A stretch of 64,000 bases of DNA, taken from the IMG/VR virus record IMGVR_UViG_3300045988_181101; one strand, written 5' to 3'. The notes beneath the pieces are model-generated. The model was given only the letters and a program-made list of their open reading frames with translations, did not search any database and had not been told where the DNA came from. The stretch is from a virus. Shown here one piece after another: positions 3,720-63,808 of this stretch. The translations under genes and the position numbers were made by a program. Each line of letters opens with the position of its first letter. Position 1 is the first letter of the stretch.

Positions 3720-3724
3720 ATTTG

Positions 3725-3795
3725 TTGGACTAAGAGGATTCGAACCTCTACAAACAGAACCAAAACCTGTTGTGCTACCATTACACCATAATCCA
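3725..3795 (-). tRNA. tRNA-Gln(UUG)
   Basis: Hand-folded 71-nt cloverleaf on the minus strand: acceptor TGGATTA/TAGTCCA (U1-A72), D-arm GTGT-AATGGTA-GCAC, anticodon arm ACAGG-TTTTGGT-TCTGT, T-arm AGAGG-TTCGAAT-CCTCT. No CCA is encoded. Confidence 0.8.
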
Positions 3796-21962: not shown

Positions 21963-22484
21963 TTAAAAATTCATTCTACGTCCATATTCAGCCATAAGTA
22001 AACTGTCAGAAAAGTTATCATCTTCATTCTTACATTTATTTGTTCTTCTAAGATCTACAGTAGGAAAAATTCTATGAGAAGCTAAGAAGCTCATTTTCTT
22101 TGTATCAATAACTTGAGTTTTACCTGTTGTAGAAGGTTTTGTTATCACATTAATTCCTCTAAACATTTCTTTTTGCCAAATCTTGGGATTTACTTTTGTA
22201 TAAGGTAACCCGATTGTAGCAATAACACCTTCGATTAATCCTGCTATAAATCCAAAGTTAAATGTTCCTTTTGCTGAACTACCGAAAATTGCGTGTATAT
22301 TCTCAATTATAACATGACAATTATCTTCATACTTAGAAAGGTTTAATAATGTATTACTTATTTCGACTGCATCTACATTTTTCGCATTTTTCAATAAAAA
22401 AAATGATTCTATGAATTTTCCAGTTTCATCTACAATCGAGATACAACCTTTAACACCGGGGTCTATACCTATATAATATTTCAT
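21963..22484 (-). CDS. RuvC-like Holliday junction resolvase
   Basis: YIGIDPGVKGCISIV (first acidic residue), VIIENIH (Glu), SDSLLMAEYG (C-terminal Asp); sits in the recombination module. Confidence 0.7.
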   Translation of the reverse strand: MKYYIGIDPGVKGCISIVDETGKFIESFFLLKNAKNVDAVEISNTLLNLSKYEDNCHVIIENIHAIFGSSAKGTFNFGFIAGLIEGVIATIGLPYTKVNPKIWQKEMFRGINVITKPSTTGKTQVIDTKKMSFLASHRIFPTVDLRRTNKCKNEDDNFSDSLLMAEYGRRMNF

Positions 22485-33649: not shown

Positions 33650-35092
33650 GCGACCTGTTGTTAGGAAGCGTTCAAATAGAAGATCGTATTCAAGAGGATT
33701 AATATAATTAAGTTCCAATAGATAAGAAATGAGACTCCCACAAGCTGACCCTCTACCAGCCCCTAAAAGTATATTTTCTTTCTTACACCAATTGACGATA
33801 TCTCTCAACATTAAAAAGTAATCGACTACATCTCCTTCTTCAATTACCTTCATTTCTCTTTCAAGTCGTTCTTGAATAACTTCATCTGAATATTTCTCAA
33901 GAAGCTCAGGATGATTTTCAATACCTTTAAATATCAAATCTTCAAACATATCAATATTAGTTTCGTATTGAAGAGCTTCTTCATCAGTCATGTGATAAAC
34001 AGGCATGTGTCGTATTTGCGTTTCAATTACGAAATTACATTCAAATGATACTTCTTTTAGATTTGAAACGGCTCTTTCCCACGTAGAAAAGAATTTTTCA
34101 TCATTACCGAATAAATAACTTAACTCTTCAAAATACTCTTGATAATTTTTGAAATATTGATTTTTACTTTCGTGTGTAATTATCTTACCAATAGAATTTA
34201 ATTTCTTTTTAACGGGATACCATTCTTTCTCTATATAATAAGCATCACACATTGCGATAGGTTCAAGTTCACTTAAAAAGAATCTTTTTAAATTATTTAA
34301 ATAATCTATATCCTTTTCTTCTTTTTCAAATACAGTTGTATCAAGTTGATAATAAGGTACTATTTCTTTTAGATTTGTAGGTATATTTCTATATTCTATT
34401 GATTTAGGATCCCAAATTAAAACTAATCCATCATAACAATCTTCAATATCTTCTTGCGTAACAAAAGCTTTATCATTTGTATTTATTATTTCATTCAATT
34501 TTAGAAGGTTCTGCCAACCTATTTGATTTTTTACAAATGCTTTAATAGTGTACTTCAAATCTTTTTTCTCGTCTACAATTATGATCTCCATTCCTTGAAT
34601 AGAACGTAATCCTGCTTTTTGACAAGCATTTTGAAATTTCATACAGCCTGCTAATGTTCCTTTTTCACAGATACCAAGACTTGTGATTCCTAAGAATTTA
34701 GCTTTCTCACACCATTTCTTATAGAGACCTACACTATTTAATAATTCAAGAGGACCATGAATCCCAAGATAAGTATCTATATAAAATTCTTCATCTTCAA
34801 GTTTAGCTTTACCTAACCATTTTATAGGATTTAATTTTACTTGCAATTCATCTCCCTTTTTAAGAGAATACCAAATACTACCAAAACTAAAAATGTAATT
34901 ATCACAATCAGTTCTATCGCATGCCCAATGAAAATCTTCATCAAAAAGAACTTTCTTACCTTCTTCCCATTCTATAGGTTCAAATAGTTCATACGTTTGA
35001 TTATTTATCTCAATGACATAATCTCCTAATTCTTTGTAATCTATAAAATTGTCATTAAGATATTGAATTAATTCTTTATATAATTCTTTCAT
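33650..35092 (-). CDS. dnaE: DNA polymerase III alpha subunit, N-terminal part (degenerate PHP domain and start of palm); 3' boundary approximate
   Basis: GAGRGSACGSLISYLLELNYINPLEYDLLFERFL matches the DnaE GRGSAAGSLV...LFERFLNPER block. The track ORF continues 55 non-homologous codons to the stop at 33482. Confidence 0.85.
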
Positions 35093-43226: not shown

Positions 43227-45965
43227 TTAAATCAAATTTATTCCTACTTGAACTTCTTTCTCACACTCTCTCAACGAGTTAATCGAAATAAAGGTACTCA
43301 TACAAACATCATCGTGTCCCGAAGCAGCTTCAAGTTTACCATTATCACTTTTAAACGTTATAGATGAGAATTCACCAAACATTAAGTCAACTGCTTGTCT
43401 CGTTTCTCCTACAGCATAAGGACATTTTAATTGACCTCTTTCAAACATTGCTGAAAGACTTGGTAATCCTGTATAAAGATCCTTCTTATTTCCTTCAGTC
43501 GTAGTAAAAGTTTCAATATTTTTCAATCCTCTTTCTCTTGCTAACGCAGATAATATGGACTGAAATCCGTTTGATTCACATACAATTTTATTAGGTCTAA
43601 ATAATCTATCAAGTTGAACAATCTTATCTATCTGCTCATTATGAGACATTCCTTTTTGTCTGTAATAAGTAAGTAGATAATAATTCTTCATTGAATCAAT
43701 ACCCCAAACTGAATATACAGTATAGTCTGCACCAATATTACCTGAAACAGCAAAGTCTACACCTATATGAACTCTTTGTAATTTTATAGGATAATCATCT
43801 ATAGATGTAGCGAATCTTATATTTTCCATTCCTACAGTTGATCTCATCAAATATTCATAAGGAAATATTGTAGATGAATCACTAATAGGTACTACAAGAT
43901 ACTCACGATTAAACACGATTGTTCCAAGTTCTTCTCTCTTTGCAAGAATCTGATCAAACGTATATCTATCAGGAGCAAGTGGTCTACCATCAGGAAATAT
44001 AACTGGATATTCAAAACAGTAAAATCGCTTATCAGCTTTCAATACTTGATATAATTCATTTGGTGCAGAAGAATATGGTGTTCCACAAACAATAAAATAT
44101 CCATAAGGCTCTACGATAGGCTCAATTGTTCCTTTTAGAAGTTCTTTAAGTTTTTCTCTTTGTTCGTCTGAATATAAAGAAGATTCATCAGGCATATCAT
44201 CACATAATACAGCTCCTACGTGTAGACCGCGAATGAAACCATCGCGACCACGAATATGTAATGTGCTTCCTGTTTCAGTTGTTATACCTGTTTCTCCAAT
44301 AGATGCTTTACCATTTGGATTAAGTTTCTCAGCTATCAAATCATTTGTTTCAATTTCCTCTCTTACTTTTTTAATCTGAACTTTCGCAAGTGTCATCGTA
44401 GATGTGATATAACACGTTTCTTTTCTGTTTTGATTATCTACAGTATTTTGTCTCCAGGGAACAGGTCGACAATAACTCCATAATCTCCAAAGAATAAATG
44501 CATAAGACCACATATAACTATTATGAACAACAGTTCCATCACTGAGTAGAAATTTATGATCACCATCTAAAGCAAATCCATAATAGTCTCCTTCTCCTGC
44601 TTGAGTAATAGTTAAAGCTGATTTATTACCTTGTTGAACTTTATCATATTGTTGAGCTTGCTTTCTCTTTACTTTAGTAGGTATTGTCCAAATTTTACCG
44701 GATATATAAATTCTGTAGAATTTATAATTTTTATAACTATATTCACCAATTTGTATATTTTTTCTCACATGTGTTTCTATAGAAGTACATTGAAATCCAA
44801 GTGACAAAGCAAGATAACGAATTTGTTCTATAAGCTCATATTTCTTTAAAGATAATTCAAACGAACATGAATTTCTCGAAGTTCCTTTTCGTTTTAAATA
44901 TTTTTGTTCATTTAAATGACCGTCCGAATCCAAGATACCTGCTAATAATTGAAGTCTCTGTTGACGAGAACCTTTCATATAAACATCAGGAATATGCTTG
45001 TTTTGAATTAAATTCAAATCTCTCAATTTAGATGATAAATCTACTCCGGAAATTCCGTTTAACATTTCTTTTTCTTTATAAGAATATTTTCCTCCTATCC
45101 TTTTACTATATTCTTTAATTGCATTTCTTACTTCTATATCCGGATTTGTTATGTAATAATTGCAATTCGTACCATCACCAAGCCAAAGTCCAAGCCAATA
45201 TGGATCAATAGAAAGTTCTTTTTCAGGAAGTTCCCATCCATCAATCTTTCTGTATCCAAAAATTTTCTTCCGACCATAACCTGCATGTTTAGGGATGTCT
45301 TCAACAGGAATGTCTTTATAAATTCTTTTTGTTACTCTTTTATTATCTATTGTTGTTGGTCGATCCCAAATACAACAAACCAAATGACCTTCATTCACAT
45401 AATAATCTTTAGCATAAGTTTGATGAACTTTATACATCTGCGACCGACCTCTATGAAGTTGAAGAACTGTTCTTGGAGTATTATCTATTCCCATCACTTG
45501 ATCTCCAACTTTAATATCTTGAACAGGCTTTAAAGAACCATCATACATAACTACTAACTCGTTGATACTGAGACATTTACCTGAACCGCGACCACAAAGA
45601 TAACAGCTCCACGGAAACAGTTGTGTCATATTACCCCATTCAACATTTCTCCAACCCATCCTAAAATTAGGGAGCATTGTCAAAATGAAGTAATTCAATG
45701 AATAAATCTTCAAAGTTGTATCCATTGAAGCTTTTACATTCTCTATATAATCAAGACTTTCAGAATCAAGTGTTCTACCAAGATACAGTGTTTTTTCAGT
45801 TTGAGTAAGTATTTCCTTTAACATTTTATCAACATCATTATTATAACCTTCAAGAAGTTGATTTAATGCTTTAGGAGATAGATCCTCAATTATTTTATCT
45901 ACAGTATCATATAGATAATTCATTTGATTTACTGAAAGTAAATCTTTACCATCTAATGTTAACAT
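43227..45965 (-). CDS. terL: terminase large subunit, interrupted by an intein
   Basis: The exteins join as CYLCGRGSGK + SYMWSYAFILW (Walker A GRGSGKS). Walker B is AVLCDDMPDE. The C-terminal RNase H-like nuclease has IGVDFAVSG, VCESNGFQ and GHDDVCMS. Confidence 0.85.
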   Translation of the reverse strand: MLTLDGKDLLSVNQMNYLYDTVDKIIEDLSPKALNQLLEGYNNDVDKMLKEILTQTEKTLYLGRTLDSESLDYIENVKASMDTTLKIYSLNYFILTMLPNFRMGWRNVEWGNMTQLFPWSCYLCGRGSGKCLSINELVVMYDGSLKPVQDIKVGDQVMGIDNTPRTVLQLHRGRSQMYKVHQTYAKDYYVNEGHLVCCIWDRPTTIDNKRVTKRIYKDIPVEDIPKHAGYGRKKIFGYRKIDGWELPEKELSIDPYWLGLWLGDGTNCNYYITNPDIEVRNAIKEYSKRIGGKYSYKEKEMLNGISGVDLSSKLRDLNLIQNKHIPDVYMKGSRQQRLQLLAGILDSDGHLNEQKYLKRKGTSRNSCSFELSLKKYELIEQIRYLALSLGFQCTSIETHVRKNIQIGEYSYKNYKFYRIYISGKIWTIPTKVKRKQAQQYDKVQQGNKSALTITQAGEGDYYGFALDGDHKFLLSDGTVVHNSYMWSYAFILWRLWSYCRPVPWRQNTVDNQNRKETCYITSTMTLAKVQIKKVREEIETNDLIAEKLNPNGKASIGETGITTETGSTLHIRGRDGFIRGLHVGAVLCDDMPDESSLYSDEQREKLKELLKGTIEPIVEPYGYFIVCGTPYSSAPNELYQVLKADKRFYCFEYPVIFPDGRPLAPDRYTFDQILAKREELGTIVFNREYLVVPISDSSTIFPYEYLMRSTVGMENIRFATSIDDYPIKLQRVHIGVDFAVSGNIGADYTVYSVWGIDSMKNYYLLTYYRQKGMSHNEQIDKIVQLDRLFRPNKIVCESNGFQSILSALARERGLKNIETFTTTEGNKKDLYTGLPSLSAMFERGQLKCPYAVGETRQAVDLMFGEFSSITFKSDNGKLEAASGHDDVCMSTFISINSLRECEKEVQVGINLI
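44520..45575 (-). mobile_element. intein (352 aa, class 1: Cys1...His-Asn / +1 Ser) with LAGLIDADG domain
   Basis: CLSINELVVMYDGSLKPVQDIKVGD...LLSDGTVVHN followed by S; LAGLIDADG motifs WLGLWLGDGT and LAGILDSDGH; Cys1 codon at 45573-45575, Asn codon at 44520-44522. Confidence 0.9.
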
Positions 45966-50736: not shown

Positions 50737-53700
50737 TTATTTCCAATCTGAAGGTATATCATTATAATCAGATAAATTAACACAACCTCTGTAACAACCT
50801 GTTCGTTTAGACGTATACAATGTACTATTGTAACTTGAAGCTTGCATATTTTCAGCAGGTATATATCCATTCGTAAATCCCCATAAAGCTGTCAACCACC
50901 CCATAAAAGTTTCTCTTTCATCATCCAATTCAGAACAACAAGATTCTCCTGTCAAAGAAGAACAACCTTCAAAACAAAATGAATAATCCTTACAATAAGC
51001 AGAAACACCTTGAACTTTCCAATAATTTCCACCTTGTGTTCTTCTTCTTGTTACTGCGTATGAATAAAATAAATAATAAAGATCCCCTCTTAGATTAGAA
51101 CATCCTGAAAAAGCTGAATTTAATGATTCTACAGGACATCCAAAAAAAGGACTTGATTCTTTTTCTCCATATATATATTGTAAATTTTTACAATTTTGAA
51201 ATACACCAGCAAAATTAACGCAATTTGTAAGTCTTGAAAAATAATTAGAAGGAATTGAATTTACGCCAGTACCTGAAAACAAAAATTGAACTGAAGTTAC
51301 ATTAGAACATCTTAAATCAATGTTAGTTATAGTTCCTAAATTTCCACAACCCATAAACGTTCTATCTAAAGTAGTTAAATTAGAACTTTCTATAACTGCA
51401 AACATAGAAGATAATTGACTATTCTCAAACATTTCATCAGCATTTATACAATTTCGTGGGAATCCTCCTCTAAAATTAGAAAATCCTGAAGAACGAAACA
51501 TTGCATTACAATTTACATTTGCAGTTAGATCTTCTATACGTGGCATTTGTTGTAATTTACTCGTATAATCAAACATCTCTGATGCATTTGTTAAACCAGA
51601 AGCATTTTGAAAAATCGAATCAGATACTACTTGTAAATTTGAACAACTTTTAAACATGGCACTTGCATTTGTACAAGTAGATGGAATTTGAATAGTTACA
51701 CTTTCTAAACTTTTACAATCTTGAAACATTTTAGAAAGATATAATACTGTTTCAATATTTTCAATTAAACCTGATCTTACCTCAATTAAACCTGAATTTG
51801 CAAAGCATTCTGTAAAATCACCTAATTTAGCCCAATCAAGCATACCTGGTTCAATTGAATTTAAACTCAAACAATTTGCAAATAATCTCACGCACGAACC
51901 TTGAACAAATCCAACACGTAATTTATCTAATCTACTTAAAAGTATACATTTATAAAATCCTCCGTTTCCAAAATTAACTTGATTTGTATTTTGAAAAAAC
52001 CTTTCTACATACCTTAATTTATTTTGAATTCCATCAAGTAAAGGAGCTTCTTCACACGACCATCTTAAAGTTCCTATTTCTGAACCAAAACTAATCTTAA
52101 TTTCTGTATTTTGTGATATATCAAGACTTTCTTTAAAAATCTTACCGTAAGTTATAGTGCCATCTCCCCAATCAACTTTTAAATTAGATAATCCTTCTTG
52201 ACTTGTATTAAGAATAGGAAGACTAATTTTTTCAACTCCTGAACCACGAACAACAATGGCCATTGTATCTTCTATAGTTACAGTTACAGTTTTAGATGTT
52301 AAATCATTTGTAAAACTGCCTAAAGAATCCATACAATGTGGATAAGTAACTTTATAATTATAAGTTTTTTGTTCTGTTACTAAAAACAAAACTTCTCCAT
52401 GACTATCAGTTGCTTCATTTAACTCTCCAATCTGAATTGAAGCACCTTGTAATGCTAAACCATCACTTGTTTGAACTTTAAATGTGATTTCAGTATAAGA
52501 TCTTTTCAATGTTCTTGTTATAAAAACAGATTCGTTTTGAACAATAGCATTACCTGAAATAGTTTGATATCCTTCTTTTGAAATCGTATAATAATAACCG
52601 CTTAAATTATTACCATAACCTCTTAAAGTTAAACGACCTGGTTCTGATGAATTTAATGGATTCGTATTACCAACTTGACCACCACAACTAATATAAGCAT
52701 TAGGAATTGGATTACTTAATTCATCAACTACAGTAAAAATTATAGAATATGTTGATTCACCCATTACAACATCTATTTCAGGATTTTCTGTAGTGATTGT
52801 TGTATTTTGTACTATATCTTCATATGGCGGTTTTTTAGAACATCTATATTCTTTATTTTCAAGTGAAAGTGGTACATTTGAAAAGACTGCTTTTCCTTGT
52901 TGATTTGTTTTAATTGTCGAACCATTAAAAGTTATAGATACATCTTGTACAGGTAACTTTTCATCAGGATTACTTGGATTAGGAATGTAAGTTGTGTTAA
53001 AAGTCACATTAGTTGTTTTTCTCGTTAAATTAACACTTACATCAGAATTTGAACCTGATATTACTCGATTACCTTCCGTTTGATTTATAAAATCTCCATT
53101 ACTAACTGTATATCTATAATCTCCATTAGGAAGATTAAACGAAACTACACCTTCACTATTAGCATATCCTATTATATTACCATTAATCGTTACTAATGCT
53201 CCAACAGCAGGATTTGATTCTTGAGTAATTGTAAACTTTAACACATAAACTATAGTCGTTTGACGATACATTGTTACATTTACATTCAAAGCTTCATTCG
53301 TTACTCGAATATCTCCCCAATTATAATTATATCCATCAGCTTCAACAGTATAATGATAATCACCATAAGATAGAAGAAACGAAGCAAGTCCTTCTTCTGT
53401 CGTATAATGAACCTCTTTATTAATTATAATTGCTGCATTGGAAAGGATCTCTCCTGATTCATTTCTAACATAGAACGTTACAACGTTTGATGATAACGTC
53501 AAATCTACAGGAACAACTGTATTCCTATTACCAACTTCTACAGTTGAATCATATCTTTCAAACCCTTCTTTTGTAATTGAAAAAGGATAATTTCCTGAAG
53601 CAAAATTAAATATAGCTTCTCCATTTCTATTGGTTAAAATAGAATCTCTATCACCACATTTTACAGAAGCACCTTCTACAGGATTCCCATCACTTCGAAC

Positions 53701-56700
53701 AACAAATCTAACTTCATATTGAATGTTACTCATTTTAATATTAAGTTGTTCATCTTTATTTGAAATAACAACAATTCCTGTATAGGTGTTATAATTTGCT
53801 AAAGAAATAGAATAATTGTATTCACCGACTATTCTTTTAAATGTAGCTGCACCTAATGCTGTTGTAGTTTGTCTCTCAGTACCAATTGTAATTACAGCTC
53901 CAATTAACGGATTTGATTTTTCATCTGTGACTATAAAATTAATATTATATTCAATTGCAGTTACATCTATTGTTAAATTTTGATCTGCATCATTTACAAT
54001 AACAGTACCACTTTTTTCAATATAACCAGTTTTAGAAACTTTATAACTATAAGTTCCATTAGGAAATGAAATAGAAGCTTTACCTTTATTATCTGTTACT
54101 AAGGTATTATTATCTATAGAAATAGAAGCGTTATCTACTGGAACTCCATCTCTTAATACTGTAAAATTAACATTATAATAAGGTATTGCAGTTAAATCTA
54201 CATTTATAGTAGCATTATTAATTATATTAAAATCAGATTCCTTCGTAAAATAATCTTTCTTAGAAACAAGATAATGATAAGTTCCAGCTCTCATTAAGAA
54301 AGGATTACCATCTGAAGTTTGATTTACAGTTCCTTGTGCATTTGTTGTTCCTGTATATTGCTGTGTTTGACCACTTCCATCAAAATCACCTGTTAAAACG
54401 ACTGCTGCATTTGCAATAGGTTCAAATCCTTCTCTAACTCTTATTGTAACAGTATAATAAGGTACTTTATTTAATTCAACTGTTATATTAGTACTATCAA
54501 CAACACTTACAGTATTTGAAACACTTATATAATCATACTTTTCTACTGTATAAGTATATAAACCAGGATAAGCTTCAAATAAAACTAATCCATTTTCTCC
54601 TGTAATTTGAGTTTGTTGATTGAAAGTTACCCGAGCATCCTTTAAATAACGACCAGCTTCATCTAAAACTAAAAACGAGATTGTTCTTTGATAAATTCTA
54701 CCTTTTAATTGAACATACTTAATATAATCTACATCTTCAATTGTAAGAATATCTTCTTCTATTTCAAAATCTTGACCTTTTTTAATTGAATAAACATATT
54801 CACCAGGATATAAATTTATAAAAGCTTCACCGTTTATATCAGTTTTTAAAGTTTGTCCTGCTATAGTTATAATTGCATCTTGAATATAATTATTTCTTTC
54901 AGAAAACACTTTAAAAGTAATTTTTCTTTCAGATTTATCTTTAATAAATATACCTTTTAAAATATTCTTATAAGAGATTAAGTATTGTTTAATAAAGGTT
55001 TCAATAGAATTTTCTGATTGAAATGCGTTATTCTTATAATAAGCAGCAATTACATTCTTACCTCCTAAACAACCTTGTTTAAACGGTAATTCAAGAGGTC
55101 TTACTTTTACATCATATATATAAACATTAGGATCTTCATTTGCTTCTCTATTTTGAACAAAAACTGGACATATAAATTTTGTATTTGGTAAAAAGCTTAA
55201 TGCTCTACCTGAAGGAAAATTCAATTTAATTGCATCATAATTCCTTTCATTGTAAGCTAAAATGATACCAGTTAAATTATAATAGAGGTTTTCGTTTACT
55301 AACTCTAAATATTCAGTCGAATGAAATAAGCTATCGTCAGAAAGTTGATATTCTCCATTCTCAATATATTGAGTCTCTATAACATTATAATCTTTATCAT
55401 AACATATAACTCCAAATTGAATTTTAGAATTTATCAAAGAAGATAGTTTAACTCTAATAGAGACTTCGTAATTTAAAGCTGAATCTACAACCAATAATTT
55501 TGATTTATCTTCAGTAGGATAAATACCTGTTTTTTGACTTCCTCCAAAGACCATTGAAGAAATTATTTCATCTTCATTATTGATATCATTAGCAATTCGA
55601 ACATTTGAAGATCTTAATAAAGGATAATTTTTAAGATCAATAATACTCTCAGTAAACTCGTATCCTTTAGTTACATTTGATACTGTATTAGTTCTTTTCC
55701 AACAAGGTGATGAAAATCCTATTGCCCAACTTACATCTTGAGGTCTTAGTACAGCAAAAATAAATTCATCAAGATCATTGTATCTAATCAATCTTAATAA
55801 TTCGCCTAAAATAACTCCTTCTTTATTTACAATATCCAATCTACCTCTCTTCTCATATTCTTTAATATAATTGTAGAAAAGATATTGCATTTGATCTTGT
55901 GATGTTACAAGATTTGATACTAATCCTCTATTTTCAATAAACAATTCAAATAGAATTTGATTAGTATCAATCTCTTTATATTTTCTTGAATAAAGTACAA
56001 TTAAAGCGAATAAATGTGTAATCGTTCCCCAAAACGATTGAAAATCCTTACCACCTTTTTCTATAAATTTAGGTAAAATGTTTGATCCTGAAACTTTAGC
56101 TAAAACATTTTCAGCCCACTTCATTACAGCGGGATCATTTTCTTCGAAAAATCTACTAAAAACTGAACTTTTATAAACAGGATTATCTTGTAATATGAAA
56201 AATTCACTATCAGGACCCCAATACTCTATTTTGATAAATTCAATTTCTTCCTCTGTTAAAGTCCGATCAAATAACATCAAACTATACAAAACAAATCCTT
56301 CAAAATTTCTAAATCTATCAGAAGGATTAGTTTGAGATAAATCTTGAATTTGAGCTCCAATTAATAAAATATCAGAATCTGTTCCAGTTCCAGCTTTTAA
56401 CTCAATCTTATTATTGATTCTATCCTTTGTTAAAAAGATACCTTCTTTCATAGAATTCAATAATTCTGATGAAACATTAATAGGATCACCATTAGAATCA
56501 GGAAAAGAATAAATATATTTATTACCTATAACAAAAGCTCCATTTTGTTGATTACCTTTTCTTTTAGTTACTATTGGATGATTTTCAATTTGTTGTTTAT
56601 CTATATAATCAATTTTTAAAAATACTGTATAATCCTCTAAGATAGGTAAAGATTTGATATCTCCTGAATAACAACAACTATTATTAGCAGCATACGAAAC

Positions 56701-56919
56701 CAATCCGTCATTTAATATTTGAGAAGAATTTTCTTTCTTTTCACCCCAATCAAAGTTAATACAATCTAAATCATAACCATTACCTGAAAGATCTTTTAAA
56801 ATAGGATTTTTCTTCATTTCTTCATTAGTAACATTCTGTCTTGCGACATCATACCAAGCTACTAACGATTCTTGCATCCAAATTGGTTTTTCTTTTTCAA
56901 AAGGATTATATGTTTTCAT
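50737..56919 (-). CDS. giant tail-fibre / receptor-binding protein: LamG-like N-terminus, 11 tandem beta-sandwich repeats, BspA-type LRR C-terminus
   Basis: N-terminus LKDLSGNGYDLDCINF...FEGFVLYSLMLFDRTLTEEEIEFI is Laminin_G_3-like. The C-terminus has repeated F-x-x-C-x-x-L units (FANCLSLNSI, FQDCKSLESV, FKSCSNLQVV, FQNCKNLQYI, FSGCSNLRGD, FEGCSSLTGE). Track start 56925 is TTG; the first ATG is at 56917-56919. Confidence 0.75.
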   Translation of the reverse strand: MKTYNPFEKEKPIWMQESLVAWYDVARQNVTNEEMKKNPILKDLSGNGYDLDCINFDWGEKKENSSQILNDGLVSYAANNSCCYSGDIKSLPILEDYTVFLKIDYIDKQQIENHPIVTKRKGNQQNGAFVIGNKYIYSFPDSNGDPINVSSELLNSMKEGIFLTKDRINNKIELKAGTGTDSDILLIGAQIQDLSQTNPSDRFRNFEGFVLYSLMLFDRTLTEEEIEFIKIEYWGPDSEFFILQDNPVYKSSVFSRFFEENDPAVMKWAENVLAKVSGSNILPKFIEKGGKDFQSFWGTITHLFALIVLYSRKYKEIDTNQILFELFIENRGLVSNLVTSQDQMQYLFYNYIKEYEKRGRLDIVNKEGVILGELLRLIRYNDLDEFIFAVLRPQDVSWAIGFSSPCWKRTNTVSNVTKGYEFTESIIDLKNYPLLRSSNVRIANDINNEDEIISSMVFGGSQKTGIYPTEDKSKLLVVDSALNYEVSIRVKLSSLINSKIQFGVICYDKDYNVIETQYIENGEYQLSDDSLFHSTEYLELVNENLYYNLTGIILAYNERNYDAIKLNFPSGRALSFLPNTKFICPVFVQNREANEDPNVYIYDVKVRPLELPFKQGCLGGKNVIAAYYKNNAFQSENSIETFIKQYLISYKNILKGIFIKDKSERKITFKVFSERNNYIQDAIITIAGQTLKTDINGEAFINLYPGEYVYSIKKGQDFEIEEDILTIEDVDYIKYVQLKGRIYQRTISFLVLDEAGRYLKDARVTFNQQTQITGENGLVLFEAYPGLYTYTVEKYDYISVSNTVSVVDSTNITVELNKVPYYTVTIRVREGFEPIANAAVVLTGDFDGSGQTQQYTGTTNAQGTVNQTSDGNPFLMRAGTYHYLVSKKDYFTKESDFNIINNATINVDLTAIPYYNVNFTVLRDGVPVDNASISIDNNTLVTDNKGKASISFPNGTYSYKVSKTGYIEKSGTVIVNDADQNLTIDVTAIEYNINFIVTDEKSNPLIGAVITIGTERQTTTALGAATFKRIVGEYNYSISLANYNTYTGIVVISNKDEQLNIKMSNIQYEVRFVVRSDGNPVEGASVKCGDRDSILTNRNGEAIFNFASGNYPFSITKEGFERYDSTVEVGNRNTVVPVDLTLSSNVVTFYVRNESGEILSNAAIIINKEVHYTTEEGLASFLLSYGDYHYTVEADGYNYNWGDIRVTNEALNVNVTMYRQTTIVYVLKFTITQESNPAVGALVTINGNIIGYANSEGVVSFNLPNGDYRYTVSNGDFINQTEGNRVISGSNSDVSVNLTRKTTNVTFNTTYIPNPSNPDEKLPVQDVSITFNGSTIKTNQQGKAVFSNVPLSLENKEYRCSKKPPYEDIVQNTTITTENPEIDVVMGESTYSIIFTVVDELSNPIPNAYISCGGQVGNTNPLNSSEPGRLTLRGYGNNLSGYYYTISKEGYQTISGNAIVQNESVFITRTLKRSYTEITFKVQTSDGLALQGASIQIGELNEATDSHGEVLFLVTEQKTYNYKVTYPHCMDSLGSFTNDLTSKTVTVTIEDTMAIVVRGSGVEKISLPILNTSQEGLSNLKVDWGDGTITYGKIFKESLDISQNTEIKISFGSEIGTLRWSCEEAPLLDGIQNKLRYVERFFQNTNQVNFGNGGFYKCILLSRLDKLRVGFVQGSCVRLFANCLSLNSIEPGMLDWAKLGDFTECFANSGLIEVRSGLIENIETVLYLSKMFQDCKSLESVTIQIPSTCTNASAMFKSCSNLQVVSDSIFQNASGLTNASEMFDYTSKLQQMPRIEDLTANVNCNAMFRSSGFSNFRGGFPRNCINADEMFENSQLSSMFAVIESSNLTTLDRTFMGCGNLGTITNIDLRCSNVTSVQFLFSGTGVNSIPSNYFSRLTNCVNFAGVFQNCKNLQYIYGEKESSPFFGCPVESLNSAFSGCSNLRGDLYYLFYSYAVTRRRTQGGNYWKVQGVSAYCKDYSFCFEGCSSLTGESCCSELDDERETFMGWLTALWGFTNGYIPAENMQASSYNSTLYTSKRTGCYRGCVNLSDYNDIPSDWK
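52267..54924 (-). repeat. 11 tandem ~78-90-aa carboxypeptidase-regulatory-like (CarboxypepD_reg/PEGA-type) domain repeats (protein level)
   Basis: The pattern h-x-F-x-V...A-x-V/I...T-D/N-x-x-G-x-A-x-F...G-x-Y-x-Y-x-V/I-x-K-x-G-Y recurs 11 times (e.g. ITFKVFS..., ISFLVLD..., YTVTIRV..., NVNFTVL..., NINFIVT..., EVRFVVR..., VVTFYVR...). Confidence 0.75.
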
Positions 56920-56942
56920 CTTCAATTTTCTATTTTATTTTG

Positions 56943-56972
56943 TAAAGATACAAAATTGAATTCAAAATACAA
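56943..56972 (-). promoter_or_regulatory. candidate promoter (TTG-N19-TATCTTTA) for the giant fibre gene
   Basis: Minus strand GTTG-N19-GTATCTTTACA, 23 nt upstream of ATG 56919. Confidence 0.45.
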
Positions 56973-57036
56973 CTTAAATTATTTCTCATTTATCAAGAAT
57001 AAAAAATTGTATATTCGTATAACAAATTTCTTAATG

Positions 57037-57527
57037 TTATTGTGGAATATCAAAGACAAAAGTTATACAAGCAAATTGATCAAAATTACCCGCTCCTATA
57101 CTATATACTAATTCTCCAGGATTATAATTTCTATTATACACTTGACCATCATTAATAGTTTCAGAAGTACTTCTCCAATTTGTATAATATAGAATTCTTT
57201 GTCTATAATCAGCATTAGCAAATAATTGAATATTAGCTACATTAGGAAATCCAGTTGAATACCAATCTATTTTTCCAGCTTCAACAATAATTATTTCTCC
57301 ATTACGTTGCAATTCAACATTATGAGAACTAAGATTAGCAACAACGAAAAAGAAACTATTAGTAAAGGTGGTATCTGTCCAAACGTAACTTAAATTAAAA
57401 TATAATTGACTCCAATCAAATTCTTTACCAGCAATAAGAGTATTACCAATATAAGCACCAGTTTCAACTTCACCTACTCTAAGCCCCCACTATTTAAAAG
57501 TTGAATACTATTATTTTCATTATTCAT
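57037..57527 (-). CDS. tail-fibre-module protein, reading frame broken at a C5 tract (57484-57488)
   Basis: ATG 57525-57527 gives MNNENNSIQLLNSGG then a stop. The adjoining frame is open from the tract (LRVGEVETGAYIGNTLIAGKEF...) into track ORF 57037..57312. One extra C/G would join them. Confidence 0.55.
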
Positions 57528-57557
57528 AATATTTAAATTTTAAACATTAATAAATAG

Positions 57558-57590
57558 ATTAATCTCGACAAGATTATTGCCGAGATTAAT
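57558..57590 (-). terminator. terminator-like hairpin
   Basis: Perfect 10-bp arms attaatctcg / cgagattaat, 13-nt loop, followed on the minus strand by a U-rich stretch (CUAUUUAUUAAUGUUU). Confidence 0.45.
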
Positions 57591-57625
57591 GCGATTATTT
57601 TAATTAAGATTATCATTATTATTTT

Positions 57626-58351
57626 TTATAAATGTTTAATCATTTCTTCTTTTGTAGCATTAACTGGAGTAAATGTAGCATCTCTCCATGTTAAATTATA
57701 ATCTTCAAAATTCATTCTATAAATAGAACCTCCAGAGGTATCACTTTGAACATATTTAAGTTTACCTCCTTCGCCATTAAAATTTTCATAATCAGTGCCT
57801 ATAATAATTTGTAGATTAGCACAAGAAAAAGTATCATAAAACGTATCAAGATATTGTTTGTTAATACAATCAACACCATTAACTTTTGCAGTTTTAAGTC
57901 TATTGACTCCTTTTTGAGAATGATCTAATTCTATTTGTAAATCAACCCATTGATTAATAAATTCATTAGGAAATTCACAAGATAAAGCATAAAGAGTTCC
58001 AGTATTAATAGTTTTACTTACAAAAACAAAACCACCAGCAAGACCAACTCCCGTAGAACCTATAAACCATTGAATACCACTATTACCAGCAACAGTTTCA
58101 AATCTAACATATTTACCATCTTCATTCTTAAAACCAAAACTAAATTTATCTTGCATAAAAAGAGTATAAATTTTAAGAGCTGCATAATTTTCGACATTTA
58201 GATATGGAGCTTTAGTATTTATTACATCAAAATCTGCATACCACAATCCTTTATCTCTATGATAAAATTGTTTAGTACCTACATAACCGTCATTGATTTC
58301 ATTTGTACCTTGTAATGGATTATCAATATTTATACTACCAATATATAACAT
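57626..58351 (-). CDS. hypothetical structural protein (fibre module)
   Basis: ATG-initiated ORF between fibre-like genes. Confidence 0.5.
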   Translation of the reverse strand: MLYIGSINIDNPLQGTNEINDGYVGTKQFYHRDKGLWYADFDVINTKAPYLNVENYAALKIYTLFMQDKFSFGFKNEDGKYVRFETVAGNSGIQWFIGSTGVGLAGGFVFVSKTINTGTLYALSCEFPNEFINQWVDLQIELDHSQKGVNRLKTAKVNGVDCINKQYLDTFYDTFSCANLQIIIGTDYENFNGEGGKLKYVQSDTSGGSIYRMNFEDYNLTWRDATFTPVNATKEEMIKHL

Positions 58352-58361
58352 AACATTAATA

Positions 58362-59355
58362 TTAATCGGTTACAAAATAAGCTGTATTAGCATCTTTACT
58401 TGAAGAAGCATATTCAGCAGATGTTTTCTTAGTAATAGTAGTAATATTATCAGAATTAACAAGGTCTACAATAATAAATTTAGAATAGTTTGTATCATTA
58501 TGTACTTTTATAAGAATTCTTTTTGTATATAATATGTTATTAGAAGAGTAATAACATACTATGAAATTTAATTCAAAAGATAAGTTATCAGATCTTTTCC
58601 ATGCATTAACAGCTGATAATTCTATACAATTATTATTACTGCTCGAATCAGAATGAAAATAATATCTTGAATGATTAATTAAAATATCATTAACTATATT
58701 TCTAAAATTAGCTAAACTGCCAAATATTTCATTTACAGCTTGTTCTGCTTCTACTCCTGAACTGTTTCTATTAGTAATTAAACTAGTTGGGTTTGCTATA
58801 ATAACTTTACTAAAGAAATCAGTTGAGACCCAAGAACTCCAATTATTATTTAAACGACTTCTTCGTTTAACGCTTAAATCTGAATAACTTATAGCTTCTT
58901 GTACAACATCAGCAATACCTACAACTCTTAACCAACAATAATACGGAGAATAAGGATTACCTGAAACACTTGGACTTATTACATATCCTCCAACTTGAGT
59001 AACATCATCCATTGAACCACTGTCAATAAATTTTACCTTCGTTAAATCATCAACATATTTTTTAGTAGAAGGATTATAATCTCCAGTAGGAGTAAAAACA
59101 GTTGTATTATCTCTTGTTATATATCCAACATTGTTCTCAAAATCTCCAACGTTTGTTGGAACATTAACCTGCGTTATATATTTAGAATCATTTTCTAATT
59201 GACTTACCTTAGTTGGAATATTGAAATATTCTTTAATATTATCAAGTGTTGTTATAAAATTATCTTCTACCCCCCCGAATGAAAGGAAATATTTCAGCTC
59301 CTGTCAAATTTGAATCAGGAGTCATTTCACTTATTTTTAAAGTTGTCTCACTCAT
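58362..59355 (-). CDS. tail-fibre-like protein, reading frame broken at a C7 tract (59270-59276)
   Basis: ATG 59353-59355 overlaps the stop of the J-like gene (ATGA). It gives MSETTLKISEMTPDSNLTGAEIFPFIRGG and stops soon after. The next frame is open from the tract (VEDNFITTLDNIKEYFNIPTK...) straight into track ORF 58362..59012. Removing one C/G joins them. Confidence 0.6.
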
Positions 59356-62300
59356 ATCTTTTCACTTATTAAATTTATATTATCTTCCGAAGTAATATTT
59401 TTCAAACCATTTTCTGAAACAATAGGTATAGGTGGTTGTTCGCTCAATCGAATATTAAGAATCTTACTTACCTTACTATCTATTTCAAATTCTTCAGAAA
59501 ATTCCAAATATTTTTTCGAATTAACTGTTACTGTAACTCTTGAATAACTTGGTAAATTTAAAACAACTGGAGAACCATCATCACTTTGACCTTCGTATGA
59601 AAAAGCTGGATGATATTCGTTTGCATCTGAAGTTACTTTATAGGTATAAGATCTTGGTGTTGCAGCAGTTTTAAAATTTAAACCATCTGAAGTTATTAAA
59701 TATTCATTGTTAGAAGTAATGAAAAATCCTGATGAAATTGTCACATTTAAAGTAACGTCAGGCAAATAAGGTTCAACTTCTATATTAACAATTTCTCCTG
59801 CTGTATTAACTGTTTTTAAAAATGTCTGAGCAGGAAAATAATTCGTTTCTTCTGTAGTTAAATTATATTCTTTACTAAGAAATACTTTAACATTAATGCT
59901 GCTAACTTGACCAAAATCAATATCTCCAAAAAAAAGGTTTCCTACTGATATAGGAAGATTAAAAAGATTGTTTTTATAGAATCTTTTAAATGTTGCTGTA
60001 TCAGTAGCTTCTAATACTAAATCAACATTTACAGTTGAAATTCCTATCGTTATTGTCTCAACTTTTGAAACACCATACTTAGAATAAGTTATTTCATAAT
60101 CGGAACCGATAACTCCTTTAGCTTGGAAATTTCCTTGAGAATCTGTTGTTCCGCTTACTACTTGAGATGTAAATAAATCTTTAACAGAAATTGAAGCACC
60201 TGAAGAATTTACAGCACTTTCTAAAGAATCATCTTTTTCCTTTATATTATAATTAATGTCCCTTGGTTTGAGGGACATTAATACAATTTGTTCTACATCT
60301 TTTTTCTCTACTAAAATTTCACCCGAAGAATCCTCGTAATCAGGAAAAGAAACTTCATAAGTATATTCACCTTCTTCTATATCATCAAATAATGCTACAC
60401 CTAAAGAATTGCTTGTAGTGTTTCCTATAACAACTCCAGTTCCCTTATCTTTCAAAACTGCTGTAGCTCCTACTAATAAAACTTGCGTTCTCTCATCTTT
60501 GATGATAAGACTAACTTTTCTTGCTTTAGGGGTTGCAAAAACTACTCTTTCAATATCCTCATCTAAAACATCAATAGATCCACTTGTAGTTCTATAATCA
60601 TTTTGAGTAATTGTGTATTGATATGTTCCATTTGAAAGAACAAAGTCAACTTCTCCGTTTATATCTGTATAATATGATTGATTGTTTATAAAAACTTTTG
60701 CATTATTAACAAAACTACCTGTTAATGAATCTTTAACTATTAATTTTATATTCCAATAAGCTAACGATAAATAAACAACTCTACTTACATTACCGTTATC
60801 AACTACAATAGATCCCGTTACAGGGGTATATCCTGAATAATTTATCGAATATTCGTGAGTACCATTCGGAATTGATGCAACAGCATTACCATTTGAATCA
60901 GTTGAATAATTTTGTCCATCTATAGTTACTACAGCTCCTTTTATAGGTTTATTTGTTCCACCTTCTAAAACAGTAAACGTTACTATATATGGCATTGGGT
61001 TTAAATCAATTAAAATATTATTTCTATCTTGAACTTTTATCTTAATTTGATCATCATAATCTATATACCCTTCTTTCTTTACAATTGTATTATAAGTACC
61101 TTCAGTTAAATTTAATCGAAGTTGACCATTTTCATCTGTATCTTCAATTAAATCTTGGATTAATACTTTTGCAGTAGGTACAAAAATATTGTTTTTAGAA
61201 TCTATAACACTAATATTGACAACTTGAGGTTCAGGAAAAATATATTCAGTAATATCAACATCTTCAATTCCTATAGTTACAGCATTCGAAATTTGTATAT
61301 AACCCTCTTTTTTAATTGTATAGGAATAAGAACCAGGCTCAAGTTTTATACTTACATGTCCATTTTCATCTGTATTTAAAACTTGATTATTTATATTGAT
61401 TTCAACATCTTCTGCAGGTAGAGTTCCTTGTAAAACTGTAAAATTCAAAGAATGTTGTACAGCACTAAAATCATTTATAGTTATATAAACAGCAGCATTT
61501 AATACTATAAACGATCCTTCTTTTGAATTCCAATTTAATTTTGTAAGAACGTAATTATATTCACCATTCTCTAATTTTATAAATGCTTGACCATTTTCAT
61601 CTGTGATAAGAATTTTATCACCAACATTTATTACAGCTCCTTCAACAATAGAATTTCTCGTTGTAGTAACTGTAAAATATACGTATTGTGTTCTTGTTAA
61701 AACTTGACTCTGATTACCTTTATATATATCTTCTTTTATAGCAGGATAAAATAAATTAGATAATGTTTGTCCGGAATCATAGAGAATGTTCCCATTTAAA
61801 TCTCTCATTCTAAATCCTCTAATTCGAGGTAATTGATTTAATGGAACTTCTTCGTCAAATGATGGATAAAAATATTCATCAGGAACATACTTTACACCTG
61901 TTGCTGTTTTTACAATAGATAACAAATCATCCCATTGAATAGATTTACCAGGTGTCCAAAAACGAAAATCAAGATATTTTGTAAGTGCTACTTGAATGTT
62001 TTTTCTTACAGTTGCAACGTTATATTCTGCAGATAATTCAATTCTAAAATCTATACCTACATCACCTCCAACATATTTCCATTCAGCATTTTTCAATTCA
62101 ACTCCAAGAGCATTACCTTGAACATTTATATCAGATAAAGATAAATAAGGAGTTGCTTTTTGCAACAAGACATCTAATTCTTCATCTGTAAAAAACGAAC
62201 CGTTCTGAGTAATTAAGTAAATGTAAATTTTAGCATTTTCACCTAATCCAACATTCATTACCTTTAATACTCGAGGATCAAGATCTTGAAAAATTTGAGT

Positions 62301-62903
62301 CCAATATTCAAGAGTTGTTTGACTTAATTTATTATTGTTATTAATGATTCTTGCTCTGAATGTGTCATCGTCTTCTTCATCACGACCTCCTACAGCTTGA
62401 TATTCATTTGTACAATCGATATGAGATAAAGGTCTTGGTATAACCTGAGTTATACTGTTTGCGTCTACATTTGTAACTGAACCTACGATTGTACTTCTAA
62501 CGCTTACATAACCATAACCTGAATCATCAACTACTAATGGAGTGTCTACTTCAAAACGAATACCATTCTTATTAATGAAAACAGTATCAAGTCCGTATTC
62601 AGTTCCAGGTTCTGCATAAACTCTAACATATGTTGAACTACCAAGAGCGCCTTTTCTTGGACTTACGCCGAATAAGACTGCTGCACGATCAAGATATTCT
62701 CCTGTTGCATTTTCAGGGAAAATCTGAGCTTCTACAATAGCAATATCTTTTATTGCTTTTTGAGCAACCTTTGCTGTTGCAAATGCTGTTGCATTTACAA
62801 CTGAACCATCTGCAATATTCGTTGCTTTATTTGTCTTATTTTGAAAAATCTCGATCCAAAGATTTTTCAAATTTGATATTGTTGAATTAACTTTTGTAAT
62901 CAT
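59352..62903 (-). CDS. Baseplate-J-like wedge protein with 7 C-terminal tandem beta-sandwich repeats
   Basis: N-terminal 400 aa: ...IFPENATGEYLDRAAVLFGVSPRKGALGSSTYVRVYA... follows the gpJ/gp6-like pattern. Then come 7 CarboxypepD_reg-like repeats of the same family as in the giant fibre. Confidence 0.65.
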   Translation of the reverse strand: MITKVNSTISNLKNLWIEIFQNKTNKATNIADGSVVNATAFATAKVAQKAIKDIAIVEAQIFPENATGEYLDRAAVLFGVSPRKGALGSSTYVRVYAEPGTEYGLDTVFINKNGIRFEVDTPLVVDDSGYGYVSVRSTIVGSVTNVDANSITQVIPRPLSHIDCTNEYQAVGGRDEEDDDTFRARIINNNNKLSQTTLEYWTQIFQDLDPRVLKVMNVGLGENAKIYIYLITQNGSFFTDEELDVLLQKATPYLSLSDINVQGNALGVELKNAEWKYVGGDVGIDFRIELSAEYNVATVRKNIQVALTKYLDFRFWTPGKSIQWDDLLSIVKTATGVKYVPDEYFYPSFDEEVPLNQLPRIRGFRMRDLNGNILYDSGQTLSNLFYPAIKEDIYKGNQSQVLTRTQYVYFTVTTTRNSIVEGAVINVGDKILITDENGQAFIKLENGEYNYVLTKLNWNSKEGSFIVLNAAVYITINDFSAVQHSLNFTVLQGTLPAEDVEININNQVLNTDENGHVSIKLEPGSYSYTIKKEGYIQISNAVTIGIEDVDITEYIFPEPQVVNISVIDSKNNIFVPTAKVLIQDLIEDTDENGQLRLNLTEGTYNTIVKKEGYIDYDDQIKIKVQDRNNILIDLNPMPYIVTFTVLEGGTNKPIKGAVVTIDGQNYSTDSNGNAVASIPNGTHEYSINYSGYTPVTGSIVVDNGNVSRVVYLSLAYWNIKLIVKDSLTGSFVNNAKVFINNQSYYTDINGEVDFVLSNGTYQYTITQNDYRTTSGSIDVLDEDIERVVFATPKARKVSLIIKDERTQVLLVGATAVLKDKGTGVVIGNTTSNSLGVALFDDIEEGEYTYEVSFPDYEDSSGEILVEKKDVEQIVLMSLKPRDINYNIKEKDDSLESAVNSSGASISVKDLFTSQVVSGTTDSQGNFQAKGVIGSDYEITYSKYGVSKVETITIGISTVNVDLVLEATDTATFKRFYKNNLFNLPISVGNLFFGDIDFGQVSSINVKVFLSKEYNLTTEETNYFPAQTFLKTVNTAGEIVNIEVEPYLPDVTLNVTISSGFFITSNNEYLITSDGLNFKTAATPRSYTYKVTSDANEYHPAFSYEGQSDDGSPVVLNLPSYSRVTVTVNSKKYLEFSEEFEIDSKVSKILNIRLSEQPPIPIVSENGLKNITSEDNINLISEKI
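60009..61685 (-). repeat. 7 tandem ~78-86-aa CarboxypepD_reg-like domain repeats (protein level)
   Basis: YVYFTVTT..., SLNFTVLQ..., VVNISVID..., YIVTFTVL..., WNIKLIVK..., KVSLIIKD..., DINYNIKE... Confidence 0.7.
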
Positions 62904-63808
62904 ACAGTAATATTCGTTAAATATTCTTGATTTGTAATAGCTTTAGCTTTTACAGTCAAAAATACATTATCTCCTTTAATTTGCAAATCTAACAATTCAA
63001 CAGATTCCCATCTACTATCTCTCTGAAACATATTCATAACACTTTTAAATATAGAAGGATATTGAATTGCATTCACTGTTGTTCCTATAAATTCATTTGA
63101 AATACCATAATCAGGAAATTCGGGAATTGAACCTGTCAGTGAAGATGCAATGATATTTAATGCTTGTACCATTGCATCGTGACCATTCACTGTAATTAAA
63201 TCACCAGTTTTATCAAATGAAAATTTTACTGAAATATCTTTCCCTAATATCTTATCACCTACTAAAGTGTCAACTACAGTATTAACTTCATTAGAACCAG
63301 TATTACGCATATTAATATAGAATGTATTTCTCATTCCATCTTCATCATCATAATCTTCTTCTCTAATATATTGAGGTATTACAATATTTCTCCAATCATT
63401 TTCAAAATCTTCATCTCCTTTTTCTAAAGAAACATTTTCAAAATCTTCACCTAATCTTAATTTCCTACTTATTTGAATTGTATTATCTCTTCCTATAGAA
63501 GAACTTCTCAACCATCTGTTTGAATTCTTTATAGTCTCTAACTTTGTTTGAATCTCTGTAAAATCATCTAAAATATCCCACATCGAAATATCATCCAAAG
63601 CATTACCATGTAAAGAAAATAAAGGTTCTATTACATTAGTACTTTCAATTAATTTATCAAGTTTTTGAAATGCTTCAGCATTAACTATTCCCCCTTGATA
63701 AAAAGATATTATAGATGGATAATAGGTATTACTAAAATCCACAAAAGATTGAAAGAACGATTTAATATCGTATCCTGTTATCTGATTGAATTTTTCGAAT
63801 TTATCCAT
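62900..63808 (-). CDS. baseplate component, possibly GPW/gp25-like C-terminal domain
   Basis: Sits immediately upstream of the J-like gene with a 4-nt overlap. The C-terminal third (PEFPDYGISNEFIG...VELLDLQIKGDNVFLTVKAKAI) resembles gp25/W by eye only. Confidence 0.4.
   Translation of the reverse strand: MDKFEKFNQITGYDIKSFFQSFVDFSNTYYPSIISFYQGGIVNAEAFQKLDKLIESTNVIEPLFSLHGNALDDISMWDILDDFTEIQTKLETIKNSNRWLRSSSIGRDNTIQISRKLRLGEDFENVSLEKGDEDFENDWRNIVIPQYIREEDYDDEDGMRNTFYINMRNTGSNEVNTVVDTLVGDKILGKDISVKFSFDKTGDLITVNGHDAMVQALNIIASSLTGSIPEFPDYGISNEFIGTTVNAIQYPSIFKSVMNMFQRDSRWESVELLDLQIKGDNVFLTVKAKAITNQEYLTNITV

Follow-up and report, generated by a model that had tools for sequence, protein, structure and literature searches.

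The question raised by a 64,000-nt viral DNA from IMG/VR (record IMGVR_UViG_3300045988_181101; this whole stretch is called the window hereafter) was why a gene for a tail-fibre-like protein should be broken by a run of guanines shortly after its start codon. The fibre ATG (59355-59353) overlaps the TGA of the preceding gene as ATGA, with the A shared; that gene (59352..62903, minus strand) encodes a Baseplate_J-like baseplate wedge protein of 1183 amino acids (aa) with CarboxypepD_reg repeats (PF04865, 2.4e-15; phrog_6, baseplate wedge subunit). Frame 0 from the fibre ATG encodes MSETTLKISEMTPDSNLTGAEIFPFIRGGRR and ends at a stop codon (59262-59260) after 31 aa. The break lies 28 codons past the ATG, at a coding-strand G7 that we named tract A (59270..59276, minus strand; fibre codons 27-29) and around which the coding strand reads …GAA ATA TTT CCT TTC ATT CGG GGG GGT AGA AGA TAA. 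The 31-aa product (59260..59355, minus strand) is the N-terminal part of the fibre. From the tract onwards the +1 frame (VEDNFITTLDNIKEYF…) stays open for 86 codons and runs into a 216-aa open reading frame (ORF; 58362-59012), whose start lies 343 nt from the fibre ATG and which ends …AYFVTD; as a whole, the remaining fibre frame (VEDNF...YFVTD and a stop), in +1 relative to the ATG, spans 58362..59269 (minus strand). The original prediction had described this arrangement, and its coordinates and frames were all verified, as was its remark that C7, the tract on the strand presented, is the longest G/C homopolymer: it is the sole G/C run of at least 6 in the 64 kb, the rest being G5 or C5. We consider it likely that tract A is a simple-sequence contingency locus, which would phase-vary a receptor-binding fibre by slipped-strand mispairing.

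To what length the intact gene corresponds was read from its relatives. The comparison covered 29 loci with DNA from IMG/VR, JGI, ENA and Logan assemblies; these are independent human-gut assemblies, and the tract lengths are those of the assembly consensus. Intact relatives encode proteins of 327-331 aa, mostly 87-92% identical to the repaired window protein (P0001-P0007) with two at 72-73%, and read …FPFIRGGVEDNF… across the tract, except for one that reads …FIRGGGVEDNF…. Tract A was G9 and in frame (ON) in L004, L007, L009, L013, L014, L018 and L019. Two further loci were also ON, one through CGA followed by G10, which adds one extra Gly (L010), and one through the interrupted form CGGAGGGGGG (CGGAG6; L002). 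The gene was out of frame (OFF) with G7 in the window, L011/L012 and L076-L085, with G8 in L001, L003 and L015-L017, and with G10 in L008. Thus, the only in-frame forms among the 29 loci were G9 plus interrupted or +3 forms. The original prediction had expected the intact gene to carry a tract of 6 and to encode 330 aa; such a tract does restore the frame arithmetically, but the intact relatives carry G9, an interrupted tract or a G12 equivalent, so that the window allele is G9 minus 2. Restoration of G9 in the window genome gives a 331-aa fibre. Searches with the repaired protein also returned truncated relatives of 280 aa or 215 aa, and a sister lineage (at most 38% identity) reads …FPFVREGVKDNF… (R-E-G-V) at the site of tract A and has no tract.

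The tract varied on nearly identical backgrounds. A 105,449-bp human-gut scaffold (L079; ENA ERZ28597095, SAMEA2338839) agreed with the window, G7 included, at every position of 8,096 nt. Over 850 flanking nt, only 3-8 differences from the window were found in L003, L001 and L015, which carry G8, in L008, with G10, and in L013, with G9, whereas L011, also G7, differed at 69 positions. Since this distant locus shares G7 while near-identical genomes differ in length, G7 arose more than once. When loci were grouped by the 141-nt flank, all five haplotypes with at least three members carried two or three tract lengths. We also looked up the predicted truncated peptides as exact matches on public contigs. 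The 29-aa peptide of G8 was found on 26 contigs, the 32-aa peptide of G10 on ~18, the 31-aa peptide of G7 on 7 in one table and 16 in another look-up (at least 10 different samples), the 30-aa peptide of G11 on 1-2 and the 33-aa peptide of G13 on 1. Changes by ±1 are far more frequent than changes by ±2, which fits stepwise slippage around G9. In each distal fibre type, ON proteins of 327-332 aa occur beside OFF remnants of 213, 215, 277 or 280 aa, and OFF contigs made up 2 of 6 in two scans whose patterns left the tract length free. None of the OFF alleles had lost the downstream fibre frame, in which 298-302 codons were open where the locus was long enough.

Controls within the same loci showed that this variation was restricted to the G tracts and to the fibre module. 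A T8 run inside the Baseplate_J gene (59928-59935), 650 nt from tract A, was T8 in 23 of 23 loci, and in pairwise alignments of the first 19 loci all other coding-sequence indels were multiples of 3. Two pairs of loci, each made of one ENA and one Logan assembly and each probably derived from one and the same sample (L011/L012 and L018/L019), had identical flanks and equal tract lengths. On these consensus sequences, the polymorphism of tract A appears to be genuine and fast, and the broken gene in the window an "off" copy.

The choice of codons at the tract was also unexpected. The GC content of the window is 29% and G makes up 17.8% of the coding strand, so 0.22-0.30 runs of at least seven Gs are expected by chance on the coding strand of 64 kb, and a single such run, taken alone, is not remarkable. 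Yet CGG accounts for 2.0% of Arg codons and GGG for 3.2% of Gly codons in the window, GGGGGG is used at none of the 48 Gly-Gly pairs of its long ORFs, and the probability of CGG GGG GGG given Arg-Gly-Gly is ~2e-5. For runs of at least nine Gs the expectation is 0.006 per 64 kb, whereas in relatives a stretch of ~2.5 kb contains two or three G8-G10 tracts. The codon choice at tract A is therefore surprising, and the G repeat is over-represented with respect to both base composition and codon usage. The composition of the window is itself skewed by strand: all 44 ORFs of at least 150 aa lie on the minus strand, and the plus strand has 17.8% C against 11.2% G and 38.8% T against 32.2% A.

What the original prediction had missed is that tract A is one of several tracts within the same module. 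Further variable poly-G tracts were found in relatives within ~2 kb downstream of tract A, two or three in each (G5-G10), on cassettes located between the fibre gene and the gene for a 2062-aa protein. These cassettes share a layout of a leader of ~10-27 codons, a poly-G tract and a variable domain of 107-152 codons. Tract B (…LYVGS(S/T)EI-M-Gn-LKFQLNDD…) was OFF at G6 and G9, ON at G7 and ON in one interrupted form; tract B' (…-G9-LDITQFGN…) was OFF; and tract C (MDNKVKMLN-M-Gn-LRVGE…) was ON at G10 and at G9+A and OFF at G8, G7 and G5. Tracts B, B' and C were carried by L004, L007, L010, L014, L015, L016, L018, L078, L082 and L083. A fourth tract, D, is a G8-G10 run just 5' of the ATG of another cassette (L003, L013 and L090) and may act on expression instead of reading frame. 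The ON and OFF states of tracts A, B and C assorted independently among genomes.

The window itself has a second broken cassette (cassette C; 57037..57527, minus strand). Its leader starts at the ATG at 57527 and encodes MNNENNSIQLLNSGGLE up to a stop at 57474; the 148-codon body (LRVGEVETGAYIGN...FDIPQ and a stop) is out of frame, and its last 91 codons correspond to the listed ORF 57037-57312. The frame is broken at a G5 remnant of tract C (57484..57488, minus strand), at which G6 or G9 would be in frame. In relatives tract C ranges from G5 to G10, the ON forms being G10 in L004 and L007 and G9+A in L015; the G5 of the window recurs in L003, L008, L013 and L079 and looks like a decayed, locked-OFF tract. 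Intact homologues of cassette C have 161 aa (P0202) and 165 aa (P0203), and the family counts 323 database members, with several large subfamilies whose N-termini are of the leader-GGG type and others without a G run. Just upstream of cassette C there is a terminator-like hairpin with a 14-bp stem (57558-57590, minus strand) inside a small ORF (57533-57616) for a hydrophobic peptide of 27 aa, MIILIKIIALISAIILSRLIYLLMFKI; similar sequence is found 5' of a cassette of the crAss-like phage cr11_1. The gene directly 3' of the fibre gene (241 aa; 57626..58351, minus strand) has an N-terminus, MLYIGSINI..., that resembles the ...LYVGS.EI leaders of poly-G cassettes; it has no tract and no Pfam or PHROG match. 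Promoter-like sites in the region were no commoner than in shuffled sequence.

The same design was not limited to close relatives of the window. Leader, poly-G and domain, with G7-G9 tracts, were found in other gut-phage contigs of 29% GC (L086, L087), and cr11_1 (Delmidovirus; L075 = MT774383.1 32418-39473) carries the same cassette design near its fibre genes with G9 in frame, the region 5' of its cassette resembling 57530-57620 of the window. The cultured Bacteroides salyersiae phage BS162P1 (L090 = OP172706.1 73468-85884; host strain BSC162) has the same cassettes by its fibre genes, with tracts of G9, G9 and G8 near 79967, 80343 and 80834 of the record; in one of them G9 leads to …NGGGLR and a stop, where G10 would lead on to …NGGGVKVG…, the reading present in P0232. 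The cultured relatives DAC16 and MA9V-3 had no G/C run of at least 6 in 41 kb of structural genes, which indicates that the tracts are a lineage- and cassette-specific acquisition and not a trait of the wider group. It is possible, and we propose it tentatively, that leader, poly-G (Gly-Gly-Gly) and variable domain together form a portable switchboard that has spread horizontally among unrelated Bacteroidota gut phages, from the ~105-kb contractile-tail phage of the window to Crassvirales such as cr11_1 and to BS162P1. If so, independently switching tracts would give a combinatorial mix of virions in each burst, a counterpart, on the phage side, to the variation in phase of Bacteroides capsules and surface proteins, and phase variation through simple-sequence repeats (SSRs) would be common in abundant human-gut phages and not a curiosity of Campylobacter phages.

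What the fibre is was approached through its neighbours and homologues. The upstream neighbours are a 302-aa protein that matches PHROG baseplate families, and whose homologue in relatives has a weak Pfam match to Sheath_initiator, and then the Baseplate_J protein; such baseplate genes point to a contractile-tail phage. The C-terminal motif of the fibre, …TKKTSAEYASSSKDANTAYFVTD, matches PF24243 Phage_tail_C ("Phage tail tip domain") in homologues: the close homologue P0001 scored 19.4 bits against a cutoff of 23.7, and the distant P0018 and P0021 scored 31.6 and 26.6. The repaired window fibre gave no Pfam match at E<=0.01 and no PHROG match, and an HMM (hidden Markov model) search with the fibre alignment against PDB sequences returned nothing below E = 0.29. 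In a fold search of BFVD the matches were tail fibre proteins of crAss-like phages, the best being 'Tail fiber protein [uncultured phage cr11_1]' at E = 1.3e-19. When P0001 was compared by tblastn with 50,697 phage records, 9 matches resulted, only in crAss-like and Bacteroides phages, among them the cr110_1 'tail protein' and BS162P1; the fibre and tail names of these homologues are annotations. As a family, the fibres are highly mosaic. An N-terminal module of 45 residues, which includes the tract, and a C-terminal motif of ~20 residues enclose five or more unrelated central or distal modules of 197-379 aa (for example in P0016, P0027, P0036 and P0038), and P0015 has this distal domain behind a different N-terminus. 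The module is closed by the 2062-aa giant fibre/adhesin-like protein (50737..56925, minus strand), with CarboxypepD_reg repeats and a DUF285/BspA-like C-terminus, which is likely a second host-recognition protein and could keep OFF virions infective.

The closest cultured phages, as judged by Baseplate_J, are the Bacteroides thetaiotaomicron phages SJC03 and DAC16-23 (~40% identity) and the Chryseobacterium phage MA9V-3. The latter has 103 kb and encodes DnaE, a B12-dependent ribonucleotide reductase (RNR) and QueE; DnaE and RNR are also present in the window. These relationships suggest that the host is very probably a member of Bacteroidota and, given the sharing of cassettes, probably Bacteroides or a close relative. 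Among deposited phages, Megablast with 57000-63000 produced only a 131-nt match and no close reference genome. A scan of genome contigs yielded nothing stronger than weak matches, in many phyla, to DYNPxTKKYVD, a fibre motif of wide distribution; neither host information nor close relatives came from it. Other features of the window were a single tRNA-Gln (TTG) at 3724-3795, a large terminase gene (43227-45965, minus strand) with a Hint/homing-endonuclease, intein-like insert, and a gene for a 1013-aa protein (22481-25522, minus strand) that combines a weak SMC-like match (RecF/RecN/SMC N-terminal) with LAGLIDADG and Hom_end domains. The gene for the DnaE-type polymerase III alpha subunit (30642-35092, minus strand) is split: its parts are separate ORFs (33482-35092 and 30642-32597), and an ORF of 246 aa (32706-33446) lies in the gap. 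Selfish insertions seem to be abundant in this genome.

Taken as a contingency locus, tract A combines an intragenic repeat, length polymorphism among near-identical genomes, toggling of the frame with the downstream frame intact, and over-representation of the repeat. We infer that slipped-strand mispairing during replication of the phage DNA, probably carried out by the phage's own DnaE-type polymerase, would add Gs to the tract or remove them. G9, or G9 ±3, would then yield the full fibre of ~331 aa, and other lengths would stop translation after 29-33 residues. No ATG, GTG or TTG is found in the +1 frame of the fibre before the ATG at 59012 (Met115), so that the largest restart product of an OFF allele is the 216-aa remnant, in which the first 114 residues are missing; the part predicted to anchor the fibre to the baseplate would be lost and the fibre would effectively be OFF. 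Together with the tracts on the 5' ends of the neighbouring cassettes, this would generate virions with differing combinations of fibre and tip in one population, a form of bet-hedging against hosts, probably Bacteroides, with phase-variable surfaces.

Several points weigh against the contingency-locus interpretation. The receptor-binding role of the fibre is suggested by gene position, a short C-terminal motif and the annotations of homologues. An AlphaFold2 (AF2) monomer model of an intact homologue had a pLDDT (predicted local distance difference test) of 54, with the N-terminal 150 residues below 50, and Foldseek of this model against the PDB gave no match at E <= 0.001; the poorly modelled region would fit an extended trimeric shaft. 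Within-sample heterogeneity and a high, reversible switching rate within a lineage would have to be deduced from consensus-level assemblies, in which the proxies for reversible switching are the homoplasy of tract lengths and the position of some contig ends. Of the Logan contigs, four break off at a tract (L019 at tract B, L083 at C and L085 at A) or a few bases away from one (L012, near tract B), and the ENA scaffold L011 has an N-gap beside tract B that is flanked by duplicated tract sequence. This suggests heterogeneity of length within the sample or, just as well, poor read quality; a sequencing bias specific for G is also conceivable. Finally, the mean divergence around tract A between genomes was 0.8%; with flanks that have barely diverged, conservation of the tract alone is no evidence of selection. 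OFF alleles are also so common at the consensus level that the fibre may be dispensable.

This last point leads to the possibility that the G run is just an unstable, non-adaptive hotspot and that OFF alleles are tolerated losses in a dispensable accessory fibre that drifts towards a pseudogene, with no selected switch. The frequency of OFF alleles would agree with this, as would the decayed aspect of tract C, G5 in the window and four relatives, a flank divergence too low to demonstrate purifying selection on the tract, and the presence of another very large fibre-like protein, of 2062 aa, in the same phage. A pseudogene, however, would gather secondary lesions, and the 298-302 downstream codons were open in all OFF alleles. 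ON and OFF alleles occurred on the same haplotypes, which implies two-way or repeated changes. Neither does a hotspot account for the use of rare GGG codons throughout the tract in a 29% GC genome, or for the recurrence of the G run on the 5' ends of cassettes that have different leaders and belong to unrelated phages (crAss-like phages and BS162P1). All in all, we regard simple drift as unlikely.

The original prediction had listed homopolymer sequencing error, slipped-strand phase variation, and programmed ribosomal or transcriptional slippage without ranking them. The comparative data strongly favour the second of these and do not support the other two. In bacteria, homopolymers as long as this one can give rise to transcriptional slippage, and the full preservation of the downstream frame would be expected if a ribosomal +1/-2 shift or stuttering of RNA polymerase still yielded the full fibre from G7. 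But shifts in opposite directions would be needed, +1 for G7 and G10 and -1 for G8, and no single programmed shift fits; moreover, most relatives are plainly in frame at G9, and the tract varies in length where a fixed slippery site would be expected. No downstream structure supported recoding either: the 151 nt around and downstream of the tract folded no better than shuffled sequence (minimum free energy z = -0.19), and an Rfam scan of 56800-59800 gave no match at E<=1. Reassignment of a stop codon was also considered as a rescue and rejected: each of the two OFF frames meets a TAA, and the neighbouring genes for the 1183-aa and 2062-aa proteins need only the standard code to stay open. We therefore judge recoding to be very improbable as an explanation of the break, while a possible low-level leak by RNA polymerase slippage would only modulate a switch at the DNA level and not replace it. 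That the real genome has G9 and that G7 is an artefact of sequencing or assembly is hardly credible: Illumina chemistry is known to be weak at poly-G and the four Logan contigs do end at or near a tract, but the window lies 2 nt from ON, the same G7 recurs in at least 16 contigs from at least 10 samples and studies, G8, G10, G11 and G13 alleles are also on record, paired ENA and Logan lengths agree, L079 matches the window including G7, T8 is invariant, and the same break, in several lengths, is found in dozens of independent assemblies, a 2-nt consensus error repeated across many studies being very unlikely.

If the predicted switch at tract A is functional, it would help to explain how gut phages persist beside Bacteroides with phase-variable receptors. 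The device is found here in a widespread, uncultured ~105-kb human-gut phage lineage whose cultured relatives infect Bacteroides and Chryseobacterium and whose cassettes are common to crAss-like phages. Because cultured BS162P1 carries the same cassettes, the idea is directly testable; for tract A, locked-ON and locked-OFF versions are conceivable in which GGGGGGGGG is changed to GGAGGTGGA, with or without 1 nt. There are also consequences for annotation. Gene callers split such genes into a 29-33-aa stub and a truncated remnant, so that an appreciable fraction of contigs (2 of 6 in the length-independent scans) have their fibre genes annotated wrongly, and a host range predicted from a consensus can be wrong too.

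We finally compared this locus with systems already described. Several mechanisms allow one phage genome to give progeny with alternative host-recognition proteins. The invertible G/C segment of Mu and P1 and the diversity-generating retroelement of Bordetella phage BPP-1 are alike in this outcome and differ in mechanism, which is site-specific inversion in the former and reverse-transcriptase mutagenesis in the latter; neither an invertase nor a reverse transcriptase was found among the fibre-module proteins in Pfam and PHROG scans. Bacterial SSR contingency loci, such as the poly-G surface-structure genes of Campylobacter jejuni (PMC11868660), share with tract A a homopolymer near the 5' end, stepwise +/-1 changes and frame-dependent ON/OFF states, as well as several independent loci that combine into 'phasotypes' in genes at the interface with an antagonist. 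Here, in contrast, the repeat is encoded by a virus, and a switch would act across a progeny burst and not along a cell lineage. In phages, homopolymer SSRs of T-even and other phages were reported to mutate reversibly by polymerase slippage and to create population heterogeneity (Gomez, Barrick & Waters 2025, 10.1101/2025.10.21.683753). In that work the SSRs are mostly runs of at least 6 scattered over genes of every class, with a significant deficit in the tail-fibre and other infection genes of the BASEL coliphage set, whereas the long G runs described here are concentrated in the fibre module; poly-G tracts in a BPP-1 methylase gene and in a PB1-like baseplate gene have also been noted and not studied. 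Our literature search on poly-G or homopolymer variation in fibres of crAss-like, Bacteroides or other commensal gut phages found no report.

The closest parallel is provided by Fletchervirus, a group of Campylobacter phages. Hypermutable tracts of 7-11 Gs in their receptor-binding protein genes reportedly allow a subpopulation to infect hosts that have switched off their phase-variable receptor (Sørensen et al. 2021, Cell Rep 35:109214, as cited in 10.1101/2025.10.21.683753, PMC10579305 and PMC11959909). A 2025 review calls this case "exceptional" (PMC11959909), and phage-encoded phase variation of host-recognition proteins is demonstrated so far only for Fletchervirus. Both systems have runs of 7-11 Gs in host-recognition genes or, in the window, a gene predicted to be one, ON/OFF states driven by length, several tracts per genome, an AT-rich genome and hosts with phase-variable receptors. 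They differ in that none of the 9 tblastn matches of the fibre was a Campylobacter phage, so the likeness is one of mechanism and not of ancestry, and in the phylum of the host, which here is very probably Bacteroidota. Switching has been demonstrated for Fletchervirus, while the present system is known from sequence alone. In addition, the tracts described here follow directly on a short leader, at the very 5' end, both in the main fibre and in small swappable cassettes that are common to unrelated phages. The tracts of the window and its relatives are thus of the same kind as those of Fletchervirus, set in an unusual, portable cassette architecture.

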